64,000 nt of DNA, taken from Elusimicrobiota bacterium. Lineage in GTDB: Bacteria > Elusimicrobiota > UBA5214 > JBBAAG01. The notes beneath the pieces were generated by a model. That model was not told the DNA's origin. It ran no database searches and saw only the letters and a list, made by a program, of their open reading frames with translations. Every line of letters starts with the position of its first letter. Positions within the stretch are counted from its first letter, which is position 1. Of the stretch, positions 6,130 to 30,138 are shown in pieces. The stretch spans positions 43,386-107,385 of the forward strand of contig JBBAAG010000001.1 in the NCBI GenBank assembly GCA_041658405.1, in the 5' to 3' direction. A program made the translations under genes and the position numbers.

Positions 6130-6927
6130 TTACTTTTTTATTCCCAGTAATGCCTGCGCGTTTTTGTAGTAAATATTTTCGAGCTGGTCTGCTGATAACC
6201 CTAATCCGTCAAAGATGGATTTCATATGTTCCGCAGTTTCCCACGGGGAGTCTGTACCAAAAAGTATTTTATCCGCGCCGTGGTTGAGGATAATACGTTT
6301 CATCTGCACGCGGTCCATTTCCTGGACATACGCGGTATCAAAATACGCGGAGGTGCCAATTAAATGTTTTTCTACATCGTCCCACATACGCCACCCGCCG
6401 AGATGCGCGAGGATAAGTTTTAATCCCTTTATCTCAGTAATAGGTTTTAACCGTTCCGGTGTTCCGTGGACATCAGCATACGCGATGTCTCTTCCTGCGT
6501 GAATAAGGATTATGAGGTTATATTTTACACACGCGTCGTATATTTTGTATAACCGCATATCGTCATCCGGATAAAAGTCCTGGTATTCCGGATGAAGTTT
6601 AATACCTCTAACCCCGTTTTTTGCAATAAATTCAAGTTCCGCTGCAGGGTTCGGGTAGTCGGGATGCATTGCTCCAAAACAGGTGACATTGCTGTGATGG
6701 TGGTTGGTAGTGATCATCTTACGGTTAATCGCTTCAACCTGTTCCGGTGCAGTTGCTACGGGCTGGTTGACTGATAATGTTACACCGTGTGCCTGCATTA
6801 ACTTTTGTAATCCCGTAAGTGTACCGTCGCTGTAATACTTTTCGCCGCCGGTTGCCTGCGAGAGTTTTTCAACTGCCTGTTTTGCTATTTTATCCGGGAA
6901 TATATGCGCGTGGATATCTATCAGCAT
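6130..6927 (-). CDS. Amidohydrolase-2 family TIM-barrel metal-dependent hydrolase
   Basis: It starts MLIDIHAHIFPD (metal-binding HxH) and has a later HAG/HLGG histidine. Length is 265 aa. Confidence 0.6.
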   Translation of the reverse strand: MLIDIHAHIFPDKIAKQAVEKLSQATGGEKYYSDGTLTGLQKLMQAHGVTLSVNQPVATAPEQVEAINRKMITTNHHHSNVTCFGAMHPDYPNPAAELEFIAKNGVRGIKLHPEYQDFYPDDDMRLYKIYDACVKYNLIILIHAGRDIAYADVHGTPERLKPITEIKGLKLILAHLGGWRMWDDVEKHLIGTSAYFDTAYVQEMDRVQMKRIILNHGADKILFGTDSPWETAEHMKSIFDGLGLSADQLENIYYKNAQALLGIKK

Positions 6928-6928
6928 A

Positions 6929-7360
6929 TTACAGGTTTTTTATGATATCTTCCGTAACAATAGAAATACCGTTTTTCTTTAACGTTTCCAGTGCGGATTT
7001 CGGGTTATCAAACCGGAACACCACAATCGCTCTATCACTTTTTTTCTCAACCGTAGCGTACATATACTCAACATTGATCCCCTGTTTATCAAAAAGGGAC
7101 AGCATTTTCGCAAGACCGCCGGGTTGGTCGTCAACTTCAACAGCGGTTACTTCGGTTACTTGCGCAACAAAATTGTTTTTCTTCAGCGTAGCAACGCATT
7201 TTTCCGTATCATTTACAATCAACCGCAGGACACCGAAATCAGCGGTATCCGCCAAAGCTAGTGCGCGGATGTTGATACCATTATCCGCTAAGACTTTTGT
7301 TACTTCCGCGAGCCTGCCTTTTTGGTTCTCAATAAACACCGATACTTGTTTTATGTTCAT
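6929..7360 (-). CDS. Tandem ACT-domain regulatory protein (partner of PaaK-like ligase)
   Basis: It is 143 aa. VFIENQKGRLAEVTKVLADNGINIRALALA is an ACT fold motif, and a second ACT repeat follows. It lies immediately downstream of the PaaK-like gene. Confidence 0.65.
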   Translation of the reverse strand: MNIKQVSVFIENQKGRLAEVTKVLADNGINIRALALADTADFGVLRLIVNDTEKCVATLKKNNFVAQVTEVTAVEVDDQPGGLAKMLSLFDKQGINVEYMYATVEKKSDRAIVVFRFDNPKSALETLKKNGISIVTEDIIKNL

Positions 7361-7397
7361 TTAATCCGTTCTCCTTTTTGTTTTATTGTTCAATTAT

Positions 7398-8702
7398 TTA
7401 TATCGTACGTTTATCTACTATACGCTTTGCTTTGCCTTCACTGCGGGGAATAGATTTTGGTTCCGCAAGTTTTACTTTTGTGTGAATATTCAATGTTTTG
7501 TATAGTTCGGACTCAATTTTTTTCTCTATACCTGCAAGATTTTTTATTTCATCTGAGAAAAGTTTGTCGTTCATCTCGACCTGTACTTCAAGTACGTCAA
7601 GATGCTCCCTGCGGTCAACGATAAGCTGGTAATGCGGTTCAATGCCTTCAAGTTTAAGTAATACTTCCTCGATCTGCGATGGGAAAACGTTTACTCCGCG
7701 GATAATCAGCATATCGTCCGTACGGCCAAGGATACGGTTCATCCGTACAGATGTACGCCCGCATTTACACTTTTCGTGGTTCAAAAACGTGATATCTCTT
7801 GTGCGGTAGCGTATCACCGGGGTACCTTCTTTGGTTAACGTTGTGAACACAAGTTCGCCTTTTTCGCCGTCAGGTAATACTTTACCGGTTTCCGGGTTAA
7901 TTATTTCTGGATAAAAAACGTCTTCAAACAAATGGATGCCGCATTGGTGTATGCACTCATTACCCACACCGGGGCCAATGATTTCGGTCAGGCCAAAGAT
8001 GTCCAAGGCTTTTATATGAAGATTTGCTTCTATCTCTTTTCTCATATTTTCGCTCCACGGTTCCGCACCGAAGAATCCTACCCGCAATGAAGTTTTTTTA
8101 AAGTCCATACCTTCTTCACGTCCGGCTTCCGCTAAGTACAGCGCATAGGATGGTGTGCATGTGAGAACGGTTGGTTTAAAATCGCGAAGTACCTGTAACT
8201 GGCGCTTGGTATTACCTCCGGAAATAGGGATCACAGTTGCGCCTAGGTTTAACCCGCCATGGTGGATCCCAAGCCCGCCGGTGAATAATCCATACCCGTA
8301 CGCGTTTTGGATAATATCGTTTTTTGTTACTTCACCAAGGACAAGAGTACGTGTCATAACCTCTGCCCATAACGCTATGTCGTTACGCGTATAAGCATCC
8401 ACTACTGGCGTTCCCGTTGTCCCTGAAGATGTGTGGATCTCGATAATCTCGGATTTATCCACTGCGAGTAAGCCCCAGGGGTATACTTCGCGCATATCGG
8501 TTTTTGTGGTGAACGGCAATTTTTGGATATCGTCTAATGACTTTATTTGTTCGGGTTTAACTCCGGCAGTATCAAATTTTTTGTGGTAAAACTCTACTTT
8601 GTTATACACGGTGTTGACAATACTTGCCAACCGTTTGCCTTGCAGTTCGGACATCTCCGCCCTTGGCATAGTTTCATGTTTTTCATCCCAAATGGTAGTC
8701 AT
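7398..8702 (-). CDS. Phenylacetate-CoA ligase family (PaaK / F390-synthetase-like aryl-acid--CoA ligase)
   Basis: It is 434 aa. The AMP-binding core and overall length fit the PaaK family. The ACT partner gene lies directly downstream. Confidence 0.8.
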
Positions 8703-8802
8703 AATGTTACAACGCTCCTTTTATACATTGAAAAATATATACGTTCAAGTTTGTCGCGCTATTAAAAAGCATTTTAGTAAATATTTGCGTAAATGTTAAT
8801 AC

Positions 8803-10011
8803 CTATAATGTGCCGCGCTTGCCTTTTTCAAATACTGCAATAACTTTTTGTAGTTCATCAGGTATTTGTATATGCTGCGGGCATTTTGGCACGCATTTGT
8901 TGCAACGGGTACACAACGACGCGCGGCCGTTAGTATCAAATTTCCCGTCTTTTCCCGGCCGTCCGCGTTTTTTTGAGAGTCCGCGGTACTTGCTGTAGAT
9001 AAGCCATTGTGTTATACGGTTGCCGACAGTACCCCGGTGGTCAACTCCGCGGTTGTTGAGCAACGCAAAGTTTTGCGGAATGTTCACTCCTGACGGGCAG
9101 GGCATGCAGTACTGGCATGCGGTACAAGGTACTACGATTTGTTTACGATAAATCGCAGCAAGCTCGGTGATCACCGCGTTTTCTTCTGCTGACAAACTCC
9201 CGATACCCGACGTGTCAGCACATTCACAGTTTTCGTCTACCATTTTTTTGTTACCCATACCACTGAGGACACACGCAACTTCCGGGCGGTTCCACAAAAA
9301 TTGTAGTGCCCAGTCTACCGGCGAACGTTTAATTGTTGAACGGGACATTACATCAACGGCTTCCTTCGGCGGGTTCACCAGCTGTCCGCCTTTGAGAGGT
9401 TCCATCACAACAACAGCAATCCCTTTTTTGTACGCGTACTCCAACCCTTCAGTAGTCGCCTGGATTCCGGTGTCCATATAGTTATACTGTATCTGCGTCA
9501 TATCCCAAGCGTAATGGTCAATAATTTTTTTGAATACCGGTAACGTGTCGTGTATGGAGAACCCTATATGCTTGATTTTGCCCTGTTTCTTCGCTGCTTC
9601 CATTTTATCGAGCAGGTTGAGTTTCTTCATTTTTTCAAACGCGCCGTTGTCCAGCATGTGGAATAAGTAAAGGTCAATACAATCCGTCTGCAACCGTTTA
9701 AGCTGGCTGTTGAGAAACTTGTCGAAATCAGCAGCGGTGTTTGTCATGAACACCGGTAGTTTGGTTGCAATTTTAACTTTTGCGCGGTAACCGTCGCGTA
9801 ACGCTTTCCCCAACACCTGCTCGCTTTGCCCAAAATGGTACAACCACGCGGAATCCACATAGTTTATCCCGAGGTCAATCCCGTGACGGATAATTTCAAT
9901 TGCATACTTTTCGTCTACCCGTTTGAGAAACCCGGAGGTCGGTAAACGCATACATCCGAACCCTAACGCCGATACTTCCCACGGTAAACTTCCAAGCTTG
10001 CGGTATTTCAT
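8803..10011 (-). CDS. Aldo/keto reductase fused to C-terminal 4Fe-4S ferredoxin domain
   Basis: MKYRKLGSLPWEVSALGFGCMRLP is an AKR N-terminus. The C-terminus has CTACQYCMPCP...CTRCNKCVPKCP (2x CxxCxxCxxxCP). Confidence 0.75.
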   Translation of the reverse strand: MKYRKLGSLPWEVSALGFGCMRLPTSGFLKRVDEKYAIEIIRHGIDLGINYVDSAWLYHFGQSEQVLGKALRDGYRAKVKIATKLPVFMTNTAADFDKFLNSQLKRLQTDCIDLYLFHMLDNGAFEKMKKLNLLDKMEAAKKQGKIKHIGFSIHDTLPVFKKIIDHYAWDMTQIQYNYMDTGIQATTEGLEYAYKKGIAVVVMEPLKGGQLVNPPKEAVDVMSRSTIKRSPVDWALQFLWNRPEVACVLSGMGNKKMVDENCECADTSGIGSLSAEENAVITELAAIYRKQIVVPCTACQYCMPCPSGVNIPQNFALLNNRGVDHRGTVGNRITQWLIYSKYRGLSKKRGRPGKDGKFDTNGRASLCTRCNKCVPKCPQHIQIPDELQKVIAVFEKGKRGTL

Positions 10012-10072
10012 ATAGACCTGCCTTTACAAAATGTTTTTCTAATACTACGAATATGCGTTGTTTAGACTTTTG

Positions 10073-10906
10073 TTAATCATTGTTCAATATCTTATCATAC
10101 TTCCTGCGGAGTTTTTCCAATATATCGCGGATCGCATAAGTGATAGCTCCTGGGTTTTGCCGCGGAATGTCGTGCCTACCGGAAAGCCATATCTGCTTGC
10201 TGGTTGGATATAGGCGCGAGAAATCTTTACGTTTATTATTTGTGAACCGAGCGAGCTCGGTGTTCCCCTTGTCTTCAACGCTAAGAATTATAATGGGTAT
10301 GTTGTTTGGTGTTGGTAAACTCAAGACTTCCGTTCCGGTATTTTTGAGTTCTGCAAACTCCGCTTTTGCCGCAGGAGAAAGCCAAAGGTTGAACAATAAC
10401 TGTACGAGTTTCGGTTGGTTTTCTATCGCACCAACGTTTTCAAACTGTGTGGGATGAGTCGGGTCAATGAGAATAAGCCCCGCGATTTCATCGGGATACT
10501 TCCTTGCGAAAAGCTGCATGTACAACCCGCCTACTGAATGGCCAGCCAAAATGTAAGGCGGGTACAATTCTTTATTCTGCAGAAACGCGCGGAGCTCGTC
10601 TACGATTGTTGCTCCGGTACGGGAGGTAGAATGTTTCGCACTTTTCCCGTACCCGGGACGGTTGTACGCGAATACTGTGTTGGTTTTCCCAATTTCGTTG
10701 ACGGTTTTATTAAAACTTTCCATTGTCGCACCCAGGCCGGTTTCAAACACTACGGTGGGAGTGGACCGGTGAATAAGCTTAAATTCTATTCTGGTAGTAG
10801 ATATACCGCCGTTTTGTTTGACAGTTTCAGAAGAAGCGTTGTTTATAAAAACAATAAAGATGTTCAATACTGAAAATAATATAATATTTTTTATTTTATA
10901 CAACAT
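10073..10906 (-). CDS. Secreted alpha/beta-hydrolase (lipase/esterase-like)
   Basis: It has an N-terminal signal peptide and a GHSVGG nucleophile elbow. Confidence 0.6.
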   Translation of the reverse strand: MLYKIKNIILFSVLNIFIVFINNASSETVKQNGGISTTRIEFKLIHRSTPTVVFETGLGATMESFNKTVNEIGKTNTVFAYNRPGYGKSAKHSTSRTGATIVDELRAFLQNKELYPPYILAGHSVGGLYMQLFARKYPDEIAGLILIDPTHPTQFENVGAIENQPKLVQLLFNLWLSPAAKAEFAELKNTGTEVLSLPTPNNIPIIILSVEDKGNTELARFTNNKRKDFSRLYPTSKQIWLSGRHDIPRQNPGAITYAIRDILEKLRRKYDKILNND

Positions 10907-10952
10907 GTTCGTTCATCCCATTGTATATATTATCATATTCCACGTGTTGCAT

Positions 10953-10981
10953 TGACTTTTGGCAACTTGTTGGTTATACTA
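10953..10981 (+). promoter_or_regulatory. Near-consensus sigma-70 promoter (TTGACT-N17-TATACT) for the 11035 gene
   Basis: TTGACT is at 10953-10958, followed by a 17-nt spacer and TATACT at 10976-10981, about 55 nt upstream of the ATG at 11035. Confidence 0.4.
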
Positions 10982-11034
10982 CTTATATCGACAAATGGCC
11001 GGGTTGAGGAAATTTTGGGGAAGGGACGATTACG

Positions 11035-11343
11035 ATGGCGATTGTTAACACTTTGAAAATGTATGAAATGTTGAGCGAAAAAGTTGATGAAAAAACTGCG
11101 CGGGCAGTGTCGGAAGCAATAGAATACGCGTTGGAAGAAAACGAAATGCACCAATTGAATGTATTAGCGACAAAACAAGATCTTAGAGGCCTCGAAGTTC
11201 GGTTTACTACCGAGATGGCTGAGCTGCGGGTTGAACTTAACGACAAAATCAGCGCATCAAAAACCGAGATGATACGCTGGATGTTCCTGTTTTGGATTGG
11301 TCAGGTCGCTGTGATGGCTGCGTTATTCGCGTATTTTAAGTAA
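11035..11343 (+). CDS. Small coiled-coil protein with C-terminal transmembrane anchor (DUF1640-like)
   Basis: It is 102 aa. It has a hydrophobic C-terminus MFLFWIGQVAVMAALFAYF and a predicted coiled coil. Confidence 0.4.
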   Translation: MAIVNTLKMYEMLSEKVDEKTARAVSEAIEYALEENEMHQLNVLATKQDLRGLEVRFTTEMAELRVELNDKISASKTEMIRWMFLFWIGQVAVMAALFAYFK

Positions 11344-11348
11344 ATAAG

Positions 11349-11939
11349 TTACTTAAACTGTTTGTCTACAACATTCCTAACTTCAATCAACCACTTTTTA
11401 CGTTGTTCCAATGTACTATCAACAATCGGGCTGAAGGTTGTACGGTAAAACGTTTTTGCACCGCACAAATCGGTAATACAGTTTTTCCAGGTTAACTGCA
11501 GCGGGTCGCAAAACACAGTGTGTTCCCTCTCGCCCGGCGTGTTTGAGGTGTTGAATATAACCGCAGCGCGGAGTTTGAGTAGTCCTTTTGGCAAGCCCGC
11601 GCCGTTATCTCCTTCAACAAACTCGTACGCTACTCCTGCACGGAGCACGCGGTCAATCCAGCCTTTAACAATTGCCGGGGGTTGGCCCCACCAGTTGGGG
11701 TGTACAACTACGAGGCCGTCTGCGTCAACGATTTCGGTGCAGTACTGTTGAATTTTTGGGTCAACTTTCCCGTGTTTTGGAATTTCGTCTAACGGGAGTA
11801 TGGGGTCGAACTTTTCCGTATATAGGTCGTGGAAAGTGACGGAGTGCCCGGCGGTGATTAATTGTTCTACCGCAGCAGTAGCAATCGCGTGGTTAAAACT
11901 TTCTTTCCCGGGATGGCCAAGGATAACGGTTATTTTCAT
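11349..11939 (-). CDS. Flavodoxin-like fold NAD(P)H dehydrogenase (quinone)/FMN reductase family
   Basis: MKITVILGHPGKESFNHA is the typical N-terminus of the NAD(P)H oxidoreductase family (flavodoxin_2). Confidence 0.65.
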   Translation of the reverse strand: MKITVILGHPGKESFNHAIATAAVEQLITAGHSVTFHDLYTEKFDPILPLDEIPKHGKVDPKIQQYCTEIVDADGLVVVHPNWWGQPPAIVKGWIDRVLRAGVAYEFVEGDNGAGLPKGLLKLRAAVIFNTSNTPGEREHTVFCDPLQLTWKNCITDLCGAKTFYRTTFSPIVDSTLEQRKKWLIEVRNVVDKQFK

Positions 11940-11941
11940 TA

Positions 11942-12520
11942 CTATATTTGTTTTCCAATTTCAAACGCAGCGAGGTTGGCGGCATCAGTACTTTTTGGAA
12001 CCAACGCGGTGATCGCTGACTTCCACGCATCGGAGGTAATACCTTCGAGCATTTCGGCGATTACGCCCAGGATCGCGACGTTAAGATATTTTTGGTTACC
12101 AATTTTTTGTGTCAACTCTTTTGGATCAACTGCCACGACTTTGGCGAACCGTGCGCGTAGTTCCGCGTCAATACCTTCAGGATACTTCTCAATGTTTGCC
12201 GGTAAGACACGGTATTTGACATACACCACCGCAGTTTTTGGTGAAACATACTCAAGCCACCGGAGCGATTCCATTTCTTCCAACGCGACGAGGATATCCG
12301 CCTGTCCTTCGGGGATCACGGGAGAATATACTTTGTTACCGTACCGTACATGTGAGAATACCGACCCGCCGCGTTGCGACATCCCGTGGATTTCGCTTTT
12401 CTTTGCGTCAAACCCGGAGTACATCGCGGCTAACGATATAATATCGCTTCCAAGGATAATCCCTTGCCCGCCAACTCCGGAGAACAGGATATTCGTTACC
12501 TTAATATTTGTGGTTGTCAT
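11942..12520 (-). CDS. iorB: Indolepyruvate:ferredoxin oxidoreductase beta subunit
   Basis: LFSGVGGQGIILGSDII is the pyruvate/ketoisovalerate-oxidoreductase gamma-type motif. Size is typical (192 aa). There is a 4-bp overlap with iorA. Confidence 0.8.
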   Translation of the reverse strand: MTTTNIKVTNILFSGVGGQGIILGSDIISLAAMYSGFDAKKSEIHGMSQRGGSVFSHVRYGNKVYSPVIPEGQADILVALEEMESLRWLEYVSPKTAVVYVKYRVLPANIEKYPEGIDAELRARFAKVVAVDPKELTQKIGNQKYLNVAILGVIAEMLEGITSDAWKSAITALVPKSTDAANLAAFEIGKQI

Positions 12521-14130
12521 ATAGTTTTTCCCGCATCTTTAATGTCTTTATGTTTTGCATGTTTGCGTTTGAGTATCATACACGGATCTTTGACGACAAG
12601 TAACGCCAGTTTTTTCGTTGCGAGCAATGACTGTATTACAGATTTCAGGGTTTTCATGTCATACGCACCAACAATTTTGACGTTACCTTCCCCGATCCCA
12701 ACCGCTTTTCCTAACGCGTGATAGTCAATGGCAACAGTTTCTGTTCCGTCGATCCGCGTCCCTGATAACGGGTTAGGTTGCAGCCCGGTCATCGCAGTAG
12801 TACCGTTGTCCAACACGATGATCAGCAAATGGCGTTTATTATACGCTGCATTCACAAGACCTGTAATTCCGCTATGCGCAAATGTTGAGTCACCCAGGAC
12901 TGCAACAACGCCGGATTCTTTATCCCGCGATTCTACGATTTCAATTCCTTGCGCCACTCCGATACTCGCGCCCATCTCAATGCAAGTGTCCATCGCGTTG
13001 AACGGGGGAAGCACGCCGAGGGTGTAACACCCAATATCGCCTGACACTGTTAACCCCAGTTCGTGTAATACCGTGAACACGCTGCGATGCGGGCATCCCG
13101 GGCATAACTGCGGCGGCCGCGGGGGGATGTTGATTGACACTTGCAGTTTCGCCGGCATTTTCTCGCCGGTAACGCATTGTTTTACCAACGCCGGGCTGTA
13201 CTCGCCAAGTATGGGGAACATGTCTTTTCCAACAACGTTTGTGATACCCCACGCCCGGATTTGCTGTTCAACCACCGGGTCGAGTTCTTCGACGATAAAG
13301 ACTTTTTCCATCTTCGTGCAGAACGCGGTGATAAGTTTTCTTGGTAACGGGTTTACCATCCCGAGTTTGAGGATGGAAACTGTTGGTGGTAAAGAGTCTT
13401 TGACGTATTGGTAACAAATCCCGGAAGTTATGATCCCGATTTTGTTATTGTTAATTTCCTCATGATTAAGTTTACACGTTTCAGCATATTCTGCCAGTGC
13501 GGTTAACCGTTTTTCTACAAGTACATGCCGTGCCCGCGCATATACAGGAATCATCACGTACTTCTTCGGGTTTTTCACAAACCCTGATGGTTTAACCGGT
13601 GTCAACGGGTTGGACAGTGTCGCGACACTTCGCCCGTGTGACAACCGCGTGATACCACGGACTAGTACCGGCGTGTCAAACATTTCGCTTAACTCAAACG
13701 CTTTAAGGATAAATTCTTTCGCTTCCTGTGAATCAGAAGGTTCAAGCATCGGCACTTTCGCAGCAACCGCGTAATGCCGGCTATCCTGCTCGTTTTGCGA
13801 CGAGTGCATGTCAGGATCGTCCGCAACAATGATAACAAGCCCGGCGTTGACGCCGATATAAGCTGAAGTAAACAACGGGTCCGCTGCGACATTAAGCCCG
13901 ACATGCTTCATCGTAACGATGGTCCGTGCGCCGGCTAATGCTGCTCCAATACCTACTTCCATCGCTGTTTTCTCGTTTATAGACCATTCGGTATAAACCC
14001 CGGGGTAGGATTTGAAGTTTTCTAGGATTTCCGTTGATGGTGTACCGGGATAACCAACACCTACTGTCGCACCGGCTTCATACGCGCCCCGCGCAAACGC
14101 TTCATTACCTGACAACAACACTTTTTCCAT
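12517..14130 (-). CDS. iorA: Indolepyruvate:ferredoxin oxidoreductase alpha subunit (TPP-binding)
   Basis: The N-terminus LLSGNEAFARGAYEAGATVGVGYPGTPSTEI is the IorA signature. CPGCPHRS lies in the TPP domain. The gene is coupled to iorB. Confidence 0.8.
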   Translation of the reverse strand: MEKVLLSGNEAFARGAYEAGATVGVGYPGTPSTEILENFKSYPGVYTEWSINEKTAMEVGIGAALAGARTIVTMKHVGLNVAADPLFTSAYIGVNAGLVIIVADDPDMHSSQNEQDSRHYAVAAKVPMLEPSDSQEAKEFILKAFELSEMFDTPVLVRGITRLSHGRSVATLSNPLTPVKPSGFVKNPKKYVMIPVYARARHVLVEKRLTALAEYAETCKLNHEEINNNKIGIITSGICYQYVKDSLPPTVSILKLGMVNPLPRKLITAFCTKMEKVFIVEELDPVVEQQIRAWGITNVVGKDMFPILGEYSPALVKQCVTGEKMPAKLQVSINIPPRPPQLCPGCPHRSVFTVLHELGLTVSGDIGCYTLGVLPPFNAMDTCIEMGASIGVAQGIEIVESRDKESGVVAVLGDSTFAHSGITGLVNAAYNKRHLLIIVLDNGTTAMTGLQPNPLSGTRIDGTETVAIDYHALGKAVGIGEGNVKIVGAYDMKTLKSVIQSLLATKKLALLVVKDPCMILKRKHAKHKDIKDAGKTI

Positions 14131-14135
14131 ATGTA

Positions 14136-14564
14136 TTAAAAACTTTCCAGTTCGTTTTCCGGCAACAGTTTTATCCCGGCGGCTGCTAATACAGTCTCGG
14201 CTTCGGGATACTTCTCAACTTCCATAATAATTGCCGCCTGTTTCTTGTCTTCCAACACAAACCCGTAACAATCCTCGAGGTTAATATTGTTTTTCGACAT
14301 CGCGGATAAGAGGTTGAACATCCCGCCGGGTTGGTCGTCGATTACTGCAATAATAATTTTTCGTTTTGATACCGCAATACTGTTTTGTTTAAGCCTGTCA
14401 TACGCGAGATCGGGATTGTTAACCAACAGTTTTAGCACACCGTACTCGCCCGTACTTGCGAGAGTAATCGCACGGAGGTTGATACCGTTATCCGCAAGAA
14501 CTTTAGTTATTTTTTCAATTTTTCCAGGTTTATTCTCTACGAAGATCGATAAGTGATACGCCAT
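14136..14564 (-). CDS. Tandem ACT-domain regulatory protein (paralog of 6929..7360)
   Basis: It is 142 aa. IFVENKPGKIEKITKVLADNGINLRAITLA parallels the other ACT protein. It lies between the second PaaK-like gene and iorA. Confidence 0.65.
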   Translation of the reverse strand: MAYHLSIFVENKPGKIEKITKVLADNGINLRAITLASTGEYGVLKLLVNNPDLAYDRLKQNSIAVSKRKIIIAVIDDQPGGMFNLLSAMSKNNINLEDCYGFVLEDKKQAAIIMEVEKYPEAETVLAAAGIKLLPENELESF

Positions 14565-14595
14565 AAATGTTTTATTTTACCTCCGATAAATTATT

Positions 14596-15894
14596 TTATA
14601 CACTTTTTTTTCTGAAATCATATACCCGCTGGGCTTTACCTTCCGCTGCGGGTAAACTATTAGGTTCAACCAGCTGGACAATAGGGTTCAACCCGAGCTC
14701 GGACCTAAGTTCTTCCGTCACTTTACGCTGGATTTGTTCAAGTTCTGTCAACGTTCCGCGGAAAATGTTTTCGTTGATCTCAATTTTGATGATAAGTTTA
14801 TCCATAAAACTTTCTTTTGTTAACTCAATAATATAATTATTGCCCACACCGGGTATACGCAGGATTGTGCGTTCAATCTGTATCGGGAAAATGTTTACCC
14901 CGTTGATGATAAGCATATCGTCACTACGCCCGGTAATCCTTGCGATCCTGCGGTGTGTCCGCCCGCAGGAACAGCGGGTAGATATTATATGTGTGAGATC
15001 GCGTGTGCGGTAGCGTATCAGCGGCATTGCCTGGCGCTGAAGCGTGGTTAATACAAGCTCGCCTTCTTCCCCGTCGGGAAGGACTTCGCAGGTATCCGGG
15101 TTAATGATTTCCGGATAAAAATGGTCTTCCCATAGATGCATACCATTTTGATGCGAGCATTCAAATGCAATCCCGGGCCCGCACATTTCGCTTAACCCGT
15201 AGGAGTTATAACATTTTATTTCATAAAGATTCTCAATTTGTTTCCTCATTTCCTCGCTATGCGGTTCTGCGCCGATGAAGGCAATACGTAGTTTAACGTC
15301 TTTCTTTGGGTCGAGGTTGAGTTCTTTAAATACATCAGTTAGCCGTAATGCGTAGGAGGGAAGAATATGCATAACTGTAGTCCCGAACTTTTGCATAAAC
15401 CATATTTGGCGTTTACTATTCCCCGGCCCGATCGGGATTGTAAGCATCCCAATCTTTTCCGCACCGTAATGGAACCCAAGCCCGCCAGTGAATAAACCGT
15501 AACCCATAGTGTTCTGGAACACGTCGGTATCACGTACCCCGGACATGTACATACATCTGGCGATCAGTGTAGCCCAGTTATCTATATCTTTCCGTGTGTG
15601 ATACACGACAGTAGGATTGCCGGTAGTACCTGACGAGGAATGTAACCGAATAACAGATTGAATATTTACCGCAAGCATACCGTAAGGAAAACTGTTCCGC
15701 AGGTCGTCTTTCACGGTGAATGGCAGGGATTGTATTGTTTTAACTGTTTTTATTCCATCTGCCGGGAAGGTTTTGAGTTTATCACGGTAAAACTCTGACT
15801 TCTTTGCGTGTTTTACAGTTTTGTTGAGTAACTGTATCTGTAACGCCTCAAGTTTTTTGCGCGGTATTGTTTCATATTCCTGCTGCCAGTACAT
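14596..15894 (-). CDS. Phenylacetate-CoA ligase family paralog
   Basis: It is 432 aa and collinear with the 7398..8702 protein. Shared motifs include SSGTTG and [17 protein letters not shown]. Confidence 0.8.
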   Translation of the reverse strand: MYWQQEYETIPRKKLEALQIQLLNKTVKHAKKSEFYRDKLKTFPADGIKTVKTIQSLPFTVKDDLRNSFPYGMLAVNIQSVIRLHSSSGTTGNPTVVYHTRKDIDNWATLIARCMYMSGVRDTDVFQNTMGYGLFTGGLGFHYGAEKIGMLTIPIGPGNSKRQIWFMQKFGTTVMHILPSYALRLTDVFKELNLDPKKDVKLRIAFIGAEPHSEEMRKQIENLYEIKCYNSYGLSEMCGPGIAFECSHQNGMHLWEDHFYPEIINPDTCEVLPDGEEGELVLTTLQRQAMPLIRYRTRDLTHIISTRCSCGRTHRRIARITGRSDDMLIINGVNIFPIQIERTILRIPGVGNNYIIELTKESFMDKLIIKIEINENIFRGTLTELEQIQRKVTEELRSELGLNPIVQLVEPNSLPAAEGKAQRVYDFRKKSV

Positions 15895-16513: not shown

Positions 16514-16996
16514 ATGACTACCAACATCCAGTCGCTGTTAGAAGTAATGAATAAAATGAAGGAAGCCGAGATGAAAGTCGGCGAACTGTACCTTCTCTGC
16601 GCCAATAAATGGAAGGAAGATAAACATTTTTGGATTGACATCGCGGGAACAGAGGCTAAGCATGCCGAATACCTTCAGCAGATGATGGATATGATAATAA
16701 CGAATCCCAACAAATTTAGCTACAACCGTCCGTTTAACATTACCGCAGTTGAAACTATGATTAAATTCGTGAAGAAAAACATTGAACGGTTGAACAAGGA
16801 TGAGATTACTAAAGACAATATGCTTTTTATTGCCCGCGATTTTGAAAACTCGGTAATTGAACAAAAATATGTTGAGATTATTGATACGCTAGACCTAAAA
16901 TACAAAGAGTTGATGAACCGTATCGTGGAGGAAACATTTGAACACAGGAAAATGTTGATAGACCGTATAAACATTTCCTGTAAAAGAGGATGCTGA
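16514..16996 (+). CDS. Four-helix-bundle ferritin-like (half di-iron motif E...ExxH) protein, paralog A
   Basis: It is 160 aa. The glutamate in VGELYL and the motif EAKHA are spaced about 27 aa apart. It forms a tandem pair with 16997..17461. Confidence 0.4.
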   Translation: MTTNIQSLLEVMNKMKEAEMKVGELYLLCANKWKEDKHFWIDIAGTEAKHAEYLQQMMDMIITNPNKFSYNRPFNITAVETMIKFVKKNIERLNKDEITKDNMLFIARDFENSVIEQKYVEIIDTLDLKYKELMNRIVEETFEHRKMLIDRINISCKRGC

Positions 16997-17461
16997 ATGG
17001 AAAACTTAAACGCGTTACGTGAGATGATGAAAAAAATGGCGGAAGCTGAAGTAAAAATCGGCGAGCTATACCTTCATTGTGCGAGAGTGTGGAAGGAAGA
17101 TAAGGAATTCTGGATTTCAATCGCGGGTGAAGAAGCTAAACATGCAGCAAATTTAGAAAAAATGTTTCAAATGATAGAACATGAACCGAATAAATATAAA
17201 CTTAAGCATGAATTTAAGATTGAATCGGTTGACTTAATAATAAAAGGGATCAGTAATACAATGGAAAACCTTAAATCCGGTAAAATGATTAGGCATTCTA
17301 TGTACTTCGTTGCACGGAATATTGAAAGTTCGTTACTTGAAAAGAATTATGTGGAAATTATCGAAACTGAAGTTCCGGAATATAACGTAATGATTAACGA
17401 TATTATTAAGCAAACGGTTGATCACCGCAAGATGCTCATAGCAAAAATTGAAAAAGGGTAA
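16997..17461 (+). CDS. Four-helix-bundle ferritin-like protein, paralog B
   Basis: It is 154 aa. The motifs IGELYL and EAKHA are positionally equivalent to paralog A. Its start abuts the stop of paralog A (TGA/ATG). Confidence 0.4.
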   Translation: MENLNALREMMKKMAEAEVKIGELYLHCARVWKEDKEFWISIAGEEAKHAANLEKMFQMIEHEPNKYKLKHEFKIESVDLIIKGISNTMENLKSGKMIRHSMYFVARNIESSLLEKNYVEIIETEVPEYNVMINDIIKQTVDHRKMLIAKIEKG

Positions 17462-17472
17462 CCGTACAAACC

Positions 17473-19200
17473 TTACGCCAGATGCGTCATAATTTCATCT
17501 AATGCCGCACCGGCAGGTACCATCGGGAACACGTTTTCTTCTTTCTCCACCCAGCAATCAATAATTACAGGTTTATCTTTTACTGCTAACGCTTTCTTCA
17601 ATGCTTTTACTACGTCTTCTTTTTTATCTACACGGATACCCACTGCACCATACGCTTCCGCGAGTTTAACAAAATCAGGGACCAGCGCAGGACAGCCGTG
17701 ATTCGGCCCGTCGCATTTGGGGGAACAACTGTCCGTTTTGTGTAAACACACAGCGGAGTAGCGTTTCCCGTAGAATAACTGTTGCCACTGGCGTACCATC
17801 CCGAGATATGTGTTGTTTAGTATTACAACTATAACATTTGTTTTGTTTAATACCGCAGTTGCGAGTTCCTGGATGTTCATCTGAATACTTCCATCCCCTG
17901 CGATATCAATCACGGTTTTGTCAGGTAACGCAAACTTCGCGCCGATCGCTGCGGGAAAACCATAGCCCATAGTCCCTAACCCGCCGGAGGAAATAAATAA
18001 TCTCGGTTTCTTCGCCTGATAAAACTGCGCGGCCCACATTTGGTTCTGCCCGACTTCGGTTGTAACAACAGCTTCGCCGTTGGTAAGTTTTGATATTTGT
18101 TCCACAACATACTGCGGGCGCAGTTTATTGTCTTGTGTATAAGTCAATGGCTGTTCTTTTTTCCATTTATTAATTTGTTTTAACCATTCCACATGCTTTG
18201 TCTTAGCTACGATTTTGTTGAGTTCACTGAGTACAACTTTGCAGTCGCCTACCACAGGGATATCGGTCTTAACATTTTTTGAGATTGATGTAGGATCAAT
18301 GTCAATATGCACAATCTTAGCTTTTTGCGCGAACGCTGTGAGTTTACCCGTACACCGGTCGTCAAATCTTGACCCTACTGCAATTATGAGGTCTGAGTTT
18401 TGCATTGCGTGGTTTGCCCAGTACATCCCATGCATACCAAGCATGCCAAGGGATAGTTCGTGATCCGGAGGGAACGCGCCGATTGCCATCAGTGTTGAGG
18501 TAACCAGGATCTCGCATTTTTCCGCGAGTTCCAATAGTTCAGCGCTTGCATTCGATGCGATGACACCGCCGCCTATATAAAGCACCGGCTGTTTTGATGA
18601 TGCAATCGCATCAGCAACACGTTTTATCTGCACAGGATGGCCTGTATAGTTTGGTTTATACGACCGGAGTTCAACTTTTTCCGGGTATACAAACTTAGTT
18701 TTCTGCCGGGAAACGTCTACTGGTATATCAATCAGCACAGGGCCCGGGCGGCCGGTTTTTGCGATATAGAATGCTTCACGTATAACTCTTGCGAGGTCCG
18801 CTACGTCCTTCACCAGATAATTATGTTTTGTAACAGGCCGTGTTATACCCGTGGTATCAGCTTCCTGGAACGCGTCATTACCAATAAGATTCGTCGCAAC
18901 CTGGCCTGTAATTGCTACCATCGGGATGGAATCCATATACGCCGTAGCAAGCCCGGTTGTAAGATTTGTAGCTCCCGGGCCGGAAGTTGCAATGCAAACA
19001 CCTACTTTTCCTGTTGAACGCGCATAACCGTCCGCCATATGCGCTGCGCCTTGTTCATGACGGGTAAGGATGAGTTTTATTTTGGAACCATAAAGCGCGT
19101 CAAATATCGGAAGTAATACTCCGCCGGGGATACCAAACATTATATCCACGCCTTCTTTTGTTAAGCATTCAACTAAAATCTCTGAGCCAGTTTTTTCCAT
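17473..19200 (-). CDS. ilvB: Acetolactate synthase large subunit (TPP enzyme)
   Basis: The N-terminus GSEILVECLTKEGVDIMFGIPGG and the C-terminal TPP-binding GDGSIQMNIQEL motif match. Confidence 0.85.
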   Translation of the reverse strand: MEKTGSEILVECLTKEGVDIMFGIPGGVLLPIFDALYGSKIKLILTRHEQGAAHMADGYARSTGKVGVCIATSGPGATNLTTGLATAYMDSIPMVAITGQVATNLIGNDAFQEADTTGITRPVTKHNYLVKDVADLARVIREAFYIAKTGRPGPVLIDIPVDVSRQKTKFVYPEKVELRSYKPNYTGHPVQIKRVADAIASSKQPVLYIGGGVIASNASAELLELAEKCEILVTSTLMAIGAFPPDHELSLGMLGMHGMYWANHAMQNSDLIIAVGSRFDDRCTGKLTAFAQKAKIVHIDIDPTSISKNVKTDIPVVGDCKVVLSELNKIVAKTKHVEWLKQINKWKKEQPLTYTQDNKLRPQYVVEQISKLTNGEAVVTTEVGQNQMWAAQFYQAKKPRLFISSGGLGTMGYGFPAAIGAKFALPDKTVIDIAGDGSIQMNIQELATAVLNKTNVIVVILNNTYLGMVRQWQQLFYGKRYSAVCLHKTDSCSPKCDGPNHGCPALVPDFVKLAEAYGAVGIRVDKKEDVVKALKKALAVKDKPVIIDCWVEKEENVFPMVPAGAALDEIMTHLA

Positions 19201-19236: not shown

Positions 19237-20991
19237 CTATTTCAACACCGCGCCGGTATTTGCTGAAGATACAAGTTTTGCGTACCGCGAAAGATAGCCC
19301 GTGCGTACCTTTGGTTGTAACGGTTTAACTTTTGCTGTACGGATTTTTATATCCGCATCTGTCAGCCGTACAGTAAGCATACGGTTTGGGATATCAATTG
19401 TTATCATATCACCGTCCTCAACCACTGCGATCGGCCCGTTATCCGCAGCTTCCGGAGAAATATGCCCGATACACGGACCGCGGGTACCACCGGAGAATCT
19501 GCCGTCAGTAATTAATGCTACGGATTCAGATAAGCCCATCCCTACAATTGCGGAGGTGGGGGATAACATTTCACGCATACCCGGCCCGCCCTTCGGTCCT
19601 TCATGCCGGATAACTATTACAACGCCTTTATCAATTTTTTTGTCAGTGATAGCTTTCATTGCATCAGCTTCGCTGTTGAACACTTTGGCTTTACCTGTAA
19701 ATGTAAGCATTTTATCTTTAACAGCGGACTGTTTTACTACCGCGCCATCCGGTGCGAGATTGCCATGGAGTATCGCAATCCCGCCTTGTTTACCAAACGG
19801 ATTATTTAATGATCTAATAATCTCGGGATCCAAGACTTTACCACTCGCCGCGATTTCTGTTATATCCCTGCCACTGACAGTAGCTGCGGTGTTTAGTTTA
19901 CTTTTTAAGACTGATAGTACCGCTGAAATACCGCCTGCGCGGTCAAGGTCTTCCATATACACATCCCCCGCGGGTTCAAGACGAACAATATTGGGGGTTG
20001 TTCTTGAGATATCATCAAACTTTTTTAATGGTAACTCTATCCCGCATTCACGCGCGATTGCCGGAAGGTGAAGAACCGTATTTGTTGACCCGCCAAGCGC
20101 CATGTCCGCCATAATAGCGTTATTAAACGCTTTCTCCGTCATTATACGTTTTGGGAGTAACGTTTGTTTTTCTATGAGTTCCACCACACGCATACCGGAA
20201 TCATAGGCAATACGCCGTTTCTTTGCAGAGACCGCCGGCGCTGTTGCGCAACCCGGTAAACTCATACCCATTACTTCAGTTAAACACGCCATAGTATTGG
20301 CAGTGTATAATCCCTGGCATGAGCCCGCACCGGGACATGCACAGATTTCCACTGCGGATAGTGCAGCGTCATCCATTTTCCCGGCGGAGTACAACCCTAC
20401 CGCCTCAAATGTATCGCGTACTAAAGACCTGTGTTTACCCGCATGAAAACCCGCAAGCATCGGCCCGGCAGTAACTACGATTGATGGTATATTCAACCGT
20501 GCAACTGCCATAAGCATACCCGGGGTTATTTTATCACAGTTTGTCAGGAGTATCAGCCCGTCAAGCCCGTGTGCGCGTGCAACGCATTCTATGGAGTCCG
20601 TGATTAATTCACGGCTGGGTAATGAATAACTCATGCCTTCGTGTCCCATGGCAATACCGTCACAGATTGCGGGTAAGCCAAAAATAAAGGGTGTCCCGCC
20701 TGCAGCGGCAACTCCCCGTTCTACCCAGCGTTCAAGATCACGTATGTTTATATGTCCCGGTACGAGGTCACTGAAACTCGACGCTATACCAACAAACGGT
20801 TTATCAATCTGTCCTTTAGTCAATCCTGTAGCATATAATAACGCGCGATGCGGTGCGCGTTGATATCCTTCTTTCACCGCACGGCTGTTAAATGACGGTA
20901 CCAGTTTTTTTTCGTCCTTACCTGTCTGCACAGTACCCGCTTTTTTTGATGACTTAACACTTTTCTTACTATTTTTTCCTGACATTTCCAA
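19237..20991 (-). CDS. ilvD: Dihydroxy-acid dehydratase (with Lys-rich N-terminal extension or later true start)
   Basis: The ILVD/EDD family core is present (CDKITPG, SGGT...). The 23-bp overlap with the upstream gene suggests the real start is slightly internal. Confidence 0.85.
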
Positions 20992-22567
20992 ACTCTCCCC
21001 TCTTCTTCAATAATTTGTATTCAATTGCATCTACTAACGCTATTAAACTCGCTTCAATAATGTTTTCTGATACTCCTATGGTAGTCCAGGTGTCTTTTCT
21101 ATCACGTGATTCTATTAACACACGCACCTTCGCTGCGGTACCGGCTTTTGCGTCAATCACACGTACCTTGAAGTCTGACAGGCTCATATCCGCGAGTTCT
21201 TTATAAAACTTGGCTAATGCTTTCCTCAACGCAGTATCCAGCGCGTTTACCGGCCCGTCGCCATCCGCGGCAGTATGTTCTGTCTGGCCGTTAACTTTAA
21301 CTTTAACCGTAGCTTCCGACCTCCACCCGCCTTTTTCTTCTTTCTCAATGATCACCCGCATGCCTTCCAGGTCAAATAACGGGACATACTGTTTCAATGT
21401 TTTACGCAGTAATAATTCAAACGATTCCTCTGCTGCTTCAAATTGATACCCTTGTTTTTCCAAATTTTTTACGGTATTCAACACTTTTTTTGCGGTATCA
21501 TCATCTTTACCGTTACTCAATTTTAAGTCCGTCATTTTTTGGAGGACATTACTTTTCCCGGAATATTCGGAGATAAGAATTTTTCTTGTATTCCCAACAT
21601 CCTCCGGTTTTATATGTTCATAGGTTCCTGTATGCCGGCTGACCGCGCTCGCGTGGATACCGCCCTTATGCGCAAACGCTGCGGTACCAACATACGGCTG
21701 GTAATCATTGGGGACCATATTTGCTATCTCCGAAACATACCTCGAAAGTTCTGTCAGGTTCATAATTTTTTCGGGGGATACACAGTTATACCCGAGTTTT
21801 ATCTGCAGGTTCGGCAGTATCGCACAGAGATCGGCATTCCCGCAGCGTTCGCCATAACCGTTAATCGTTCCCTGGACAAGCGTTGCGCCTTCCATAACAG
21901 CGGTAACACTGTTCGCTATCCCGCAGCCGGAATCATTATGCGCGTGTATGCCAAGCGGTACACAGCGTACCTGCATGCGTACGTACCGCATAATATCCTG
22001 TATCTGCCCCGGGAGCATACCGCCATTAGTATCACACAAAGTAAGATTTACTGCACCCGCGGATGCCGCGGTTTTAAGGACTTCCACAGCGTACTCGCGG
22101 TTATTGATGAAACCATCAAAAAAATGTTCCGCATCAAAGATAACATCCATACCTTTACTTTTGAGGAACCCGATTGAATCACGGACCATACAAAGGTTGT
22201 TCTCTAATGTAGTCTTTAACGCGTGAGTTACATGCAGCGCCCAGGATTTACCGAATATACTTGCCACCGCAGTTTTGGCGTTCACCGTGGCAATAAGGTT
22301 AGGGTCGTTCTCCGGTTTATTATCCTTATGCCGGGTGGAACAAAACGCAACTACTTTCGCGTGGGTAAGTTTTACCGTCCTTGCACGTACAAAAAATTCG
22401 CTGTCTTTCGGGTTTGAGCCCGGCCATCCGCCTTCTACGTAATCAATCCCGAACTTGTCTAATGCGAGTAATATTTTTATTTTATCTTCTACTGATAACG
22501 ACACCCCCAGAGCCTGTGCGCCGTCACGTAGGGTTACATCAAAGACGGATATCTTGCTGGTTTTCAT
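20969..22567 (-). CDS. cimA: LeuA-family 2-isopropylmalate/(R)-citramalate synthase (CimA-like, with LeuA dimerisation domain)
   Basis: [25 protein letters not shown]...[13 protein letters not shown] resembles Geobacter-type citramalate synthase. It has a HMGL-like barrel and a C-terminal regulatory domain. Confidence 0.7.
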
Positions 22568-22587
22568 ATATCAAATAATTCCCTGTT

Positions 22588-23811
22588 TCATCCCTGGCGT
22601 TTAGCAAGGCCAAATGCTTCATGCAAAACTCTCACTGCGTGTATAATATCCGCGCTGTCTACCATACACGAAATCTTTATCTCGCTGGTGGAGATCATTT
22701 CAATATTAATCTTTTCTTTTGCCAGGGCACTGAACATCTTTGCAGCGACACCCGCATGGCTGCGCATGCCAACCCCTACGATTGAAACTTTTGCAACGTC
22801 TTTATCACAGAGAACATCTTTTGCACCGATTTCTTTTTTTAATTTCGCGAGTATCGGTAAAACTTTATCCAAATCATGTTTTGATACCGTAAACGATATA
22901 TCGTTAGAACGGTCCTGTGCGGCAGATTGTATGATCATATCTACCATAATATTAGCTTTCCCAAGCTCGCTAAAAATCTTAGCTGCAACACCGGGTTTAT
23001 CCGGTAAGTCAGTGATTGACAGTTTTGCCTGGTCTTTATCAAACGCAACGCTGGAGACTACTACTTCTTCCATATTATTTACCTCCCTGCGAACAATTGT
23101 ACCTTTCTCCGTAGAAAATGTTGAGCGTATATGCAGAACAACATTATATTTTTTTGCTACTTCAATTGACCGTGCCTGCATTACCTGCGCGCCGGAACCT
23201 GCCATCTCAAGCATTTCGTCATAACTTATAGCATCAATCTTCCGCGCGTCAGGTACTACCCGCGGGTCGGTGGTATACACGCCTTTGACGTCAGTAAATA
23301 TTTCGCATTCATCCGCTTTCAATGCCGCGGCTAATGCTACAGCCGTAAGGTCAGAACCTCCCCGTCCAAGAGTTGTTATATCGCGGTTGGGGTTTTGTCC
23401 CTGGAAACCTGCAACTATGACAATTTTATTTTTTTGTAATTCCTTATAAATTTTTGTGGGTATAATCCGCGTAATCCTTGCTTTTGTATGAGTACGGTCC
23501 GCATAAATACCTGCTTGCGGGCCGGTTAATGAGATTGATTCCTGCCCGAGTTCACGGATTGCCATCGCTAATAATGCGATTGATACTTGTTCACCCGTTG
23601 CAAGCAGCATATCCATCTCACGGTCGGACGGGTTCTCTGTAATCTCCTTCGCTTTTGCGATAAGGTCGTCTGTCATGTCTCCCGGAGCGGAAACTACAAC
23701 TACTACCTTATTTCCGCGTTTTTGTACTTCAATAACCCGTGATGCTACATGTTTTACTTTAACAGTATCCGCGACGGATGAACCGCCGAATTTCATTACA
23801 ATAAGTGCCAT
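22588..23811 (-). CDS. lysC: Aspartate kinase (with C-terminal ACT domains)
   Basis: MALIVMKFGGSSVADTVKV is the AAK-family N-terminus. Length is 407 aa. Confidence 0.85.
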   Translation of the reverse strand: MALIVMKFGGSSVADTVKVKHVASRVIEVQKRGNKVVVVVSAPGDMTDDLIAKAKEITENPSDREMDMLLATGEQVSIALLAMAIRELGQESISLTGPQAGIYADRTHTKARITRIIPTKIYKELQKNKIVIVAGFQGQNPNRDITTLGRGGSDLTAVALAAALKADECEIFTDVKGVYTTDPRVVPDARKIDAISYDEMLEMAGSGAQVMQARSIEVAKKYNVVLHIRSTFSTEKGTIVRREVNNMEEVVVSSVAFDKDQAKLSITDLPDKPGVAAKIFSELGKANIMVDMIIQSAAQDRSNDISFTVSKHDLDKVLPILAKLKKEIGAKDVLCDKDVAKVSIVGVGMRSHAGVAAKMFSALAKEKINIEMISTSEIKISCMVDSADIIHAVRVLHEAFGLAKRQG

Positions 23812-23847
23812 AATCTTTTAACGGTACTCCTGATAAATAAAATAATC

Positions 23848-26071: not shown

Positions 26072-26092
26072 ATTATTACAACCAATCCTTCC

Positions 26093-27588: not shown

Positions 27589-27620
27589 AAAAATAATATT
27601 TATTCCTTCCGGCGCAGTGT

Positions 27621-28970: not shown

Positions 28971-29003
28971 AATAGGTTCCTTTTAGTTTGTTTTGGGATA
29001 CTA

Positions 29004-29498: not shown

Positions 29499-29526
29499 AA
29501 AAATATTTTTGCTCCTATTAAAAAAA

Positions 29527-30087: not shown

Positions 30088-30138
30088 CTTTGCGTTCTAC
30101 TCCTTTATCTATCCCTATACATCCCTGTCTTCGATTTT

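Follow-up and report, generated by a model that had tools for sequence, protein, structure and literature searches.

The window analysed here, a stretch of 64,000 nucleotides (nt) from an Elusimicrobiota bacterium (contig JBBAAG010000001.1, positions 43,386 to 107,385), carries two gene pairs, each composed of a PaaK-family AMP-forming ligase (LIG1, LIG2) and a small stand-alone protein with two ACT domains (ACT1, ACT2), together with the genes iorA and iorB of a two-subunit indolepyruvate:ferredoxin oxidoreductase (IOR). It was found that in related loci each of the two ligase types is followed by its own type of ACT gene. The literature searched contains no description of this pairing between PaaK-family ligases and tandem-ACT proteins, which is type-specific and spans phyla. 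The association of IOR with arylacetate-coenzyme A (CoA) ligases has already been published, its chemistry is textbook knowledge for anaerobes, and the locus itself is ordinary. The previous sequence-only reading had interpreted the region as a module for aryl acids and aromatic 2-oxoacids; judged by the sequence and structure comparisons described below, this interpretation is supported in every part that could be tested computationally.

Ligases and their aryl-acid pockets

All four open reading frames (ORFs) of the two pairs were recovered on the minus strand exactly where the sequence-only reading had placed them. The proposed paralogy was borne out, since LIG1 and LIG2 share 46% identity over 429 amino acids (aa) (E 3e-139), and ACT1 and ACT2 share 37% over 134 aa (E 3e-33). 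Both ligases contain an N-terminal AMP-binding domain and a short C-terminal AMP-binding_C_2 domain (Pfam). The adenylation motifs were intact in both proteins, namely the SSGTTG P-loop, YG/FGL(S/T)E, YRTRD, GR(T/S)DDM and the lysine of the C-terminal GKA, and these core motifs aligned with those of PaaK1, PaaK2 and BT_0428. With the NCBIfam equivalog model for PaaK (TIGR02155), LIG1 scored 573 bits and LIG2 487.6 bits, both below the curated cut-off of 646.3; by these scores the two proteins are members of the PaaK family and not equivalogs. Coenzyme F390 synthetase had been raised beforehand as an identity that would speak against the aromatic interpretation. It was ruled out for both ligases, which scored only 148.1 (LIG1) and 147.7 bits (LIG2) with the corresponding model (TIGR03335, cut-off 458.7 bits).

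The closest solved relatives of LIG2 were 4R1L and 4RVN (521 bits, versus 375 bits to PaaK1), which correspond to BT_0428 of Bacteroides thetaiotaomicron (PMC9516798). LIG2 and BT_0428 have in common the residues N98, H104, T157, S165, I211, H216, N234, S235, R291, G355 and N357 (LIG1 numbering). LIG1 was closest to Burkholderia PaaK1 and PaaK2 (PDB 2Y27 and 2Y4O; 420 and 415 bits, respectively), without the BT_0428-type match seen for LIG2.

Six residues, Y136, F141, A147, A214, I236 and P245, are taken, after Law & Boulanger 2011, to line the aryl pocket of PaaK1; in the 2Y27 chain, a constant shift of +5 brings each of the six onto a residue of the right type. The pocket of LIG1 reads Y-F-I-A-I-P, which agrees with the PaaK1/2 pattern (Y/F136, F141, A/I147, A214, I236, P245), and that of LIG2 reads M-F-F-A-S-P and departs from it at three of the six positions. 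These patterns are fixed within clades (LIG1-type, Y-F-(A/V/I)-A-I-P; LIG2-type, M-F-F-A-S-P; BT_0428, S-F-F-A-S-P). The equivalents of PaaK1 Y136, A147 and I236 are Y, A/V/I and I in LIG1-type ligases and M, F and S in LIG2-type ligases, and these clade-fixed differences support the earlier suggestion that the duplication reflects two substrate specificities. BT_0428, the AMP-forming ligase encoded beside IOR in B. thetaiotaomicron, was recently shown to make indoleacetyl-, phenylacetyl- and hydroxyphenylacetyl-CoA (PMC13285125). Based on these known products and on the clade-specific pockets, LIG1 probably takes or prefers phenylacetate, whereas the preferred acid of LIG2 is probably bulkier or more polar, e.g. 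indole-3-acetate or 4-hydroxyphenylacetate.

ACT proteins

ACT1 and ACT2 matched the ACT_8 “ACT domain pair” family (PF19571) with 95.5 and 71.6 bits, respectively, above the gathering cut-off of 23.5. The AlphaFold model of ACT1 (mean predicted local distance difference test, pLDDT, 89.7) displayed a doubled beta-alpha-beta-beta-alpha-beta fold and gave a template-modelling (TM) score of 0.94 to 2F06, the structure of B. thetaiotaomicron BT0572; ACT2 matched 2F06 at E 1.5e-17. The next whole-chain matches of the ACT1 model were the uncharacterised YdjB (9VP8, TM 0.76) and the regulatory beta subunits of aspartate kinase (TM 0.62-0.65), the latter being the nearest whole-protein structural matches of known function. 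Small subunits of acetohydroxyacid synthase (AHAS) were also among the structural matches. Both ACT domains keep the conserved glycine loop after beta1, the typical ACT ligand site. G15 and D78-x-P80-G81-G82 are invariant in the ACT1-based alignment, ACT2 included, and the ACT2 family likewise keeps G14 and G80 without exception.

The family comprises about 3,960 representatives after clustering at 50% identity (E <= 1e-10), and the best 150 of them are all stand-alone proteins of about 140 aa, the longest having 293 aa. Neither a published function for ACT_8 or 2F06 nor a link between an ACT domain and a PaaK-type ligase was found in the literature searched, where the one paper citing 2F06 names it in a list. 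An identity of the ACT genes as AHAS small subunits was ruled out by their scores with the IlvN/IlvH model TIGR00119 (29.5 and 19.4 bits; cut-off 56.9) and by their synteny with the ligases and not with ilvB.

In Syntrophorhabdus aromaticivorans, the PaaK-like isophthalate-CoA ligase has a co-induced 15-kDa neighbour, SynarDRAFT_0374, which displays no ligase activity (PMC9516798). By its size and position this protein recalls the ACT partners, to which it is possibly related.

Conservation of the ligase-ACT pairing

A search of representative genomes with an ACT1-like profile returned at least 598 confirmed relatives, and the best 80 loci were examined; a search with an ACT2-like profile contributed 80 metagenome loci, giving 160 related loci. 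The 80 ACT1-type loci came from Spirochaetota, Planctomycetota, Lentisphaerota, Verrucomicrobiota, Nitrospirota, Desulfobacterota, Bacillota, Rokubacteria, NC10, Endomicrobiales and others. In 65 of the 76 assessable ACT1-type loci, from at least 10 phyla, the gene immediately upstream of the ACT gene and in the same orientation encoded a PaaK-like ligase (median gap 36 nt). The same position was occupied by a ligase in 55 of the 58 assessable ACT2-type loci, and it was of LIG2-type every time. The ACT genes are therefore conserved partners of the ligases, as had been proposed. Among the ACT1-type loci, a second ligase followed the ACT gene in 12 of 69.

Clustering of 163 ligases gave four clades. 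The next gene was of ACT1-type for 59 of the 62 members of the LIG1-type clade and of ACT2-type for 52 of the 54 members of the LIG2-type clade. ACT1-type genes always came after LIG1-type ligases and ACT2-type genes always after LIG2-type ligases. In two further clades (21 and 11 members), with the pockets F-F-L-A-N-P and F-F-F-A-N-P, an ACT gene was never next. The distance matrices of ligases and ACT proteins were strongly correlated (r = 0.92 overall, 0.73 and 0.93 within types; Mantel p <= 0.001). It follows that ligase and ACT gene are inherited as a unit, from which physical contact does not follow by itself. The two pairs are separate, co-diverged lineages.

Members of the ACT-less clades, with Asn at the PaaK1-I236 position, adjoin ligase-ACT pairs in L100, L104, L106, L114-L116, L122, L140, L142-L145, L147, L150-L152, L007, L016, L026, L030, L032, L036, L042, L049, L061 and L068. 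Since these clades recur beside the pairs, some loci carry three differently pocketed arylacetate-type ligases.

The link to IOR was seen at other loci as well, with iorB directly upstream of a LIG1-type ligase in 32 of 55. Compact operons with six genes were found in the orders LIG2-ACT2-iorA-iorB-LIG1-ACT1 (L161) and iorA-iorB-LIG1-ACT1-LIG2-ACT2 (L159). Other recurrent neighbours of the pairs were components of Liv-type ABC transporters, a sodium:solute symporter and a class I/II aminotransferase. In B. thetaiotaomicron (L162, 6584-8426), the BT0572 gene lies directly downstream of a LIG1-type ligase that is 55% identical to LIG1, and iorAB was not found within 8 kb of this pair. Because the pair occurs there without iorAB, the ligase is the constant partner of the ACT gene.

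Oxidoreductase

The IOR displayed the expected two-subunit layout, with POR_N and TPP_enzyme_C domains in the alpha subunit and a POR domain in the beta subunit, and the best NCBIfam matches of both were all IorA or IorB models. IorA scored 616.2 bits with IOR_alpha (TIGR03336, cut-off 650.9), the match covering model positions 2-542 of 595, and IorB scored 211.9 bits versus a cut-off of 237. The shortfall of IorA may reflect an absent C-terminal domain. The CPGCPH motif is kept, and neither the CxxCxxCxxxC motif nor the C-terminal 2x[4Fe-4S] ferredoxin-like domain was found in this protein. The nearest IorA relatives are also of the short form (L161, 4911-6536; L159, 3704-5323; L014, 4396-5994), and 29 other IorA proteins in the related loci have a tail of 53-89 aa with the CxxCxxCxxxC motif.

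Gene organisation of the locus

The genes of the region are listed in Table 1. The named genes of the sequence-only reading all exist, and the second pair is in line with iorAB as described; its gene list had omitted the alpha/beta-fold hydrolase, the small plus-strand ORF and the Amidohydro_2 gene. The description of the two pairs as flanking iorAB was loose: LIG2-ACT2 abuts iorAB, and LIG1-ACT1 belongs to a separate unit that places it 3.2 kb from iorB on the downstream side.

Table 1. Genes of the ligase/IOR region, with positions in the window
Gene or product	Position	Strand	Description
LIG2	14596-15894	minus	432 aa; PaaK-family AMP-forming arylacetate-CoA ligase, BT_0428 type; Pfam AMP-binding + AMP-binding_C_2
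ACT2	14136-14564	minus	142 aa stand-alone tandem-ACT protein; Pfam ACT_8 71.6 bits; partner of LIG2
iorA	12517-14130	minus	537 aa; alpha subunit, indolepyruvate/arylpyruvate:ferredoxin oxidoreductase; POR_N + TPP_enzyme_C
iorB	11942-12520	minus	192 aa; IOR beta subunit; Pfam POR domain
Flavodoxin_2 / NQO-like flavoprotein	11349-11939	minus	196 aa; Pfam Flavodoxin_2 109.8 bits
Small ORF	11035-11343	plus, convergent	weak CCDC90-like match
Alpha/beta-fold hydrolase	10073-10906	minus	277 aa; Pfam Abhydrolase_1; hydrophobic N-terminus, secreted-looking
Aldo/keto reductase with C-terminal 4Fe-4S dicluster domain	8803-10011	minus	402 aa; Pfam Aldo_ket_red + Fer4_9
LIG1	7398-8702	minus	434 aa; PaaK-family AMP-forming arylacetate-CoA ligase, canonical PaaK-like pocket; Pfam AMP-binding + AMP-binding_C_2
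ACT1	6929-7360	minus	143 aa stand-alone tandem-ACT protein; Pfam ACT_8 95.5 bits; partner of LIG1
Amidohydro_2 metal-dependent hydrolase/decarboxylase-family protein	6130-6927	minus	265 aa; Pfam Amidohydro_2 94.8 bits

In the first unit, LIG2 is separated by 31 nt from ACT2 and ACT2 by 5 nt from iorA, iorA overlaps iorB by 4 nt, and 2 nt lie between iorB and the Flavodoxin_2 gene. The second unit runs from the hydrolase through the aldo/keto reductase and, after a gap of 100 nt, to LIG1, ACT1 (37 nt) and the Amidohydro_2 gene (1 nt). This arrangement suggests two transcription units divided by the small plus-strand ORF. The units were drawn from gene spacing, because the promoter and terminator consensus counts (18 versus 20.5 and 6 versus 13) did not exceed the shuffled expectation. 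An Rfam scan of the whole window detected one tRNA only, and no T-box or riboswitch was found near the cluster.

The reductase and the flavodoxin-like gene lie between the pairs as described. They are not conserved parts of the module, as no conserved homologue of either was found in the 160 related loci. The flavoprotein and the hydrolase had no homologue there at all, and the reductase had one weak match (27% identity, L128). The three genes were accordingly ruled out as parts of the module; they are lineage-specific insertions into a six-gene core, as indicated by the compact operons of six genes found elsewhere. The PDB relatives of the reductase were generic aldo/keto reductases only, and those of the flavoprotein were NAD(P)H:quinone oxidoreductases, of the NQO/MdaB-like kind. 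Since the start of the flavoprotein gene lies 2 nt past the iorB stop, it is probably co-translated with IOR, and its product could be the electron partner of the short IOR.

The Amidohydro_2 gene is translationally coupled to ACT1. Six Nitrospirota loci have homologues with 32-36% identity that adjoin iorA or a ligase (L011, L012, L015, L045, L054, upstream of iorA, and L033), and the association with the module therefore arose in two phyla. The only PDB relative of the protein was the uncharacterised 3IRS (E 7.5e-4). It is possible that this gene is an accessory part of the module.

Upstream of LIG2, two tandem paralogous ORFs (16514-16996 and 16997-17461; 160 and 154 aa) lie between a thioredoxin-like gene and ilvB, which encodes the AHAS large subunit (17473-19200); no Pfam match at E <= 0.001 was found for either ORF. 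No ilvN was found downstream of ilvB, where the next genes are on the opposite strand. A biosynthetic run on the minus strand (20969-34100) encodes citramalate synthase, aspartate kinase, thrB, thiC, accC/BCCP, efp, aroB and aroK. A desulfoferrodoxin gene (35027-35467) fits a strict anaerobe. The region 35486-44558 contains large genes with GH123, CBM9, metallophosphoesterase, a second Amidohydro_2, DUF6259 and FAD_oxidored domains, and is probably a glycan-degradation locus unrelated to the ligase/IOR module.

Discussion

We propose that the module salvages aryl acids for the synthesis of aromatic amino acids and that each ACT protein senses the end product for its ligase; taken as a whole, this proposal has about an even chance of being correct. 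According to this scheme, an aryl acid would be taken up and converted into its CoA thioester by LIG1 or LIG2, at the cost of the cleavage of ATP to AMP and pyrophosphate (PPi). The short-form two-subunit IOR would then use low-potential electrons for the reductive carboxylation of the aryl-acetyl-CoA to the arylpyruvate, which an aminotransferase encoded elsewhere would convert into Phe, Trp or Tyr. Each tandem-ACT protein would bind the end-product amino acid and inhibit its cognate ligase.

ACT regulatory subunits, such as those that control aspartate kinase or AHAS, are typical of amino-acid biosynthesis. Salvage is favoured because the ACT subunits and the surrounding genes (ilvB, ilvD, cimA, aspartate kinase, thrB, aroB and aroK) are biosynthetic, because the ligases are AMP-forming, and because uptake transporters and an aminotransferase occur in related loci and methanogens offer a precedent. 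The absence from the module and the related loci of the Pta/kinase or ADP-forming synthetase genes of fermentative IORs points in the same direction. AMP-forming ligases favour thioester synthesis, and on that ground an anabolic role has been proposed for the Bacteroides IOR (PMC13285125). In Methanococcus maripaludis, IOR allows aryl acids to be used for making aromatic amino acids (Porat et al., cited in PMC4162585). A further claim is advanced tentatively, as its chance would fall somewhat short of even: that ACT_8 proteins act in trans as allosteric subunits dedicated to PaaK-family arylacetate-CoA ligases, the two co-evolved pairs being adapted to different aryl acids and to the aromatic amino acids that correspond to them.

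Several observations weigh against these proposals. IOR is reversible, and that of B. thetaiotaomicron helps to make phenylacetate from phenylalanine, which is the oxidative direction (work cited in PMC13285125). The lack of the ferredoxin-like domain in IorA puts its electron partner in question. Salvage would not be obligatory for the host, since aroB and aroK in the window represent the de novo shikimate route. LIG2-ACT2 seldom adjoins iorAB (one of 30 long loci, plus L082 and L161), and co-inheritance alone can produce both adjacency and correlated divergence. The pocket assignment is provisional, its residue numbers being consistent with the 2Y27 sequence. No fusion of a ligase with an ACT domain was found among the 1,834 ORFs of the related loci or among the best 150 of the 3,960 family representatives, and no ACT_8 protein tied experimentally to a ligase or a ligand was found in the literature searched.

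The phylum Elusimicrobiota contains fermenters, and the module might run in the opposite direction. In an oxidative fermentation of aromatic amino acids, an aminotransferase and IOR would make aryl-acetyl-CoA from Phe, Tyr or Trp, the ligases would recapture acids or work in reverse (aryl-acetyl-CoA + AMP + PPi -> acid + ATP + CoA), and the ACT proteins would sense the supply and switch the pathway on. Besides the phenylacetate formation attributed in part to the B. thetaiotaomicron IOR, the enzyme was first described in peptide fermentation, in P. furiosus (cited in PMC13285125), and the two-subunit IOR/PPFOR of gut acetogens is described in the literature as oxidising aromatic 2-oxoacids to acyl-CoA. 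However, such IOR clusters normally hold Pta and an acyl kinase or an ADP-forming acyl-CoA synthetase (PMC13285125; PMC5817080), which are the genes missing here, the AMP-forming ligases favour synthesis, and the transporters beside the pairs indicate uptake and not export. This explanation is considered unlikely. It could also be that the ACT proteins are conserved neighbours of the ligases without regulating them. Their target could then be IOR, a transporter or an aminotransferase, or they could act as a buffer or carrier for a small molecule. The lack of fusions and of any literature link between ACT domains and PaaK-type ligases would fit this explanation, as would the fact that 2F06 has been without an assigned function since 2005. 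Nevertheless, only the ligase always adjoins the ACT gene, iorAB, the transporters and the aminotransferase each being absent from many loci, and the pairing is type-specific and co-diverged, which makes this explanation quite improbable.

The substrates might not be aromatic at all, for instance if branched-chain fatty acids were converted into branched-chain 2-oxoacids by reductive carboxylation and the ACT proteins sensed Val, Leu or Ile. The ACT proteins do match the AHAS small-subunit ACT model, the cluster adjoins ilvB, ilvD and cimA, with no ilvN adjacent to ilvB, and PaaK-family enzymes can take aliphatic acids, e.g. the 2-hydroxyisobutyryl-CoA synthetase 6HDW. This explanation is nevertheless very unlikely in view of the low IlvN scores given above, of ACT genes that track the ligases and not ilvB, and of a LIG1-type pocket of the same kind as that of Burkholderia PaaK1/2. 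Moreover, BT_0428-type enzymes activate aryl-acetates (PMC13285125), and the IorAB-type enzymes tested in the literature prefer aromatic 2-oxoacids. Still less can be said for a catabolic role, in which the ligases would activate aryl acids that are then broken down anaerobically to benzoyl-CoA, in the style of the Pad pathway. In denitrifiers and sulfate reducers, PaaK/PadJ homologues are known from the literature to catalyse the first step of anaerobic phenylacetate degradation, but padBCD, padEFGHI, benzoyl-CoA reductase and beta-oxidation genes were not found in the window or the related loci, nor were other paa/pad catabolic genes found in the window, and the module occurs in many non-degraders, including Bacteroides. 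Catabolism of this kind is regarded as highly improbable.

Among known systems, iorA-iorB-BT_0428 of B. thetaiotaomicron is similar in that a two-subunit IOR stands beside a PaaK-family AMP-forming ligase. LIG2 is the window protein closest to BT_0428 and shares with it the pocket x-F-F-A-S-P; LIG2-type ligases average about 54% identity to BT_0428, which has Ser at the PaaK1-Y136 position versus Met in LIG2. In contrast to the B. thetaiotaomicron cluster, the ligase here precedes iorAB and has an ACT partner, and a second ligase-ACT pair is nearby. BT0572, recorded with 2F06 as a structural-genomics conserved hypothetical protein, has the same tandem-ACT fold as ACT1 (40% identity) and likewise follows a LIG1-type ligase, the pocket of which was read from the sequence as Y/F/A/A/I. 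It differs in its second ACT domain, which has NVPGAL where every sequence of the ACT1/ACT2 alignment has the DxPGGL loop, and its pair stands alone. The PaaK1/PaaK2 enzymes of Burkholderia cenocepacia and those of PadJ type resemble the ligases in fold and motifs, with about 52% identity to LIG1-type ligases and all six pocket positions of the same kind; LIG1 and LIG2 differ from them in falling below the PaaK equivalog cut-off and in having an ACT partner. The chemistry proposed here, from aryl acid through aryl-acetyl-CoA to arylpyruvate via IOR and on to the amino acid, is similar to the route ascribed to M. maripaludis in PMC4162585, although the latter is an archaeon and the host of the window a bacterium.

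The beta subunits of aspartate kinase (2ZHO, 2DT9, 2DTJ) and the AHAS small subunits IlvN/IlvH (2F1F, 6VZ8) offer a parallel for the ACT proteins, since they are separate small ACT proteins encoded beside the catalytic subunit of an ATP- or thiamine pyrophosphate-dependent committed step, and the aspartate kinase beta subunits have the same two-ACT arrangement as ACT1. The sequence identity is low (16-22%), and in the present case the ACT protein would serve an adenylate-forming ligase, a kind of enzyme with no ACT regulatory subunit described in the literature searched.

Phenylacetate, indoleacetate and 4-hydroxyphenylacetate are connected with the aromatic amino acids by this route. They are important for carbon cycling by anaerobes and for signalling between gut and host (phenylacetylglutamine, auxin-like indoles, p-cresol precursors), and it is debated whether the IOR/ligase route makes or consumes aryl acids in a given organism. 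If the proposal is correct, a dedicated amino-acid sensor on an ATP-consuming ligase would argue for feedback-controlled biosynthesis, and would help to predict from sequence which substrate is used and in which direction the route runs. The hypothesis is open to a direct test, since the structures 2F06 and 4R1L exist and the pair is present in the genetically tractable B. thetaiotaomicron. If it holds, an adenylate-forming enzyme would for the first time be known to be controlled by an ACT regulatory subunit, and it would mean that anaerobes from more than 10 phyla, including human gut Bacteroides, gate aryl-acid salvage by end-product feedback.

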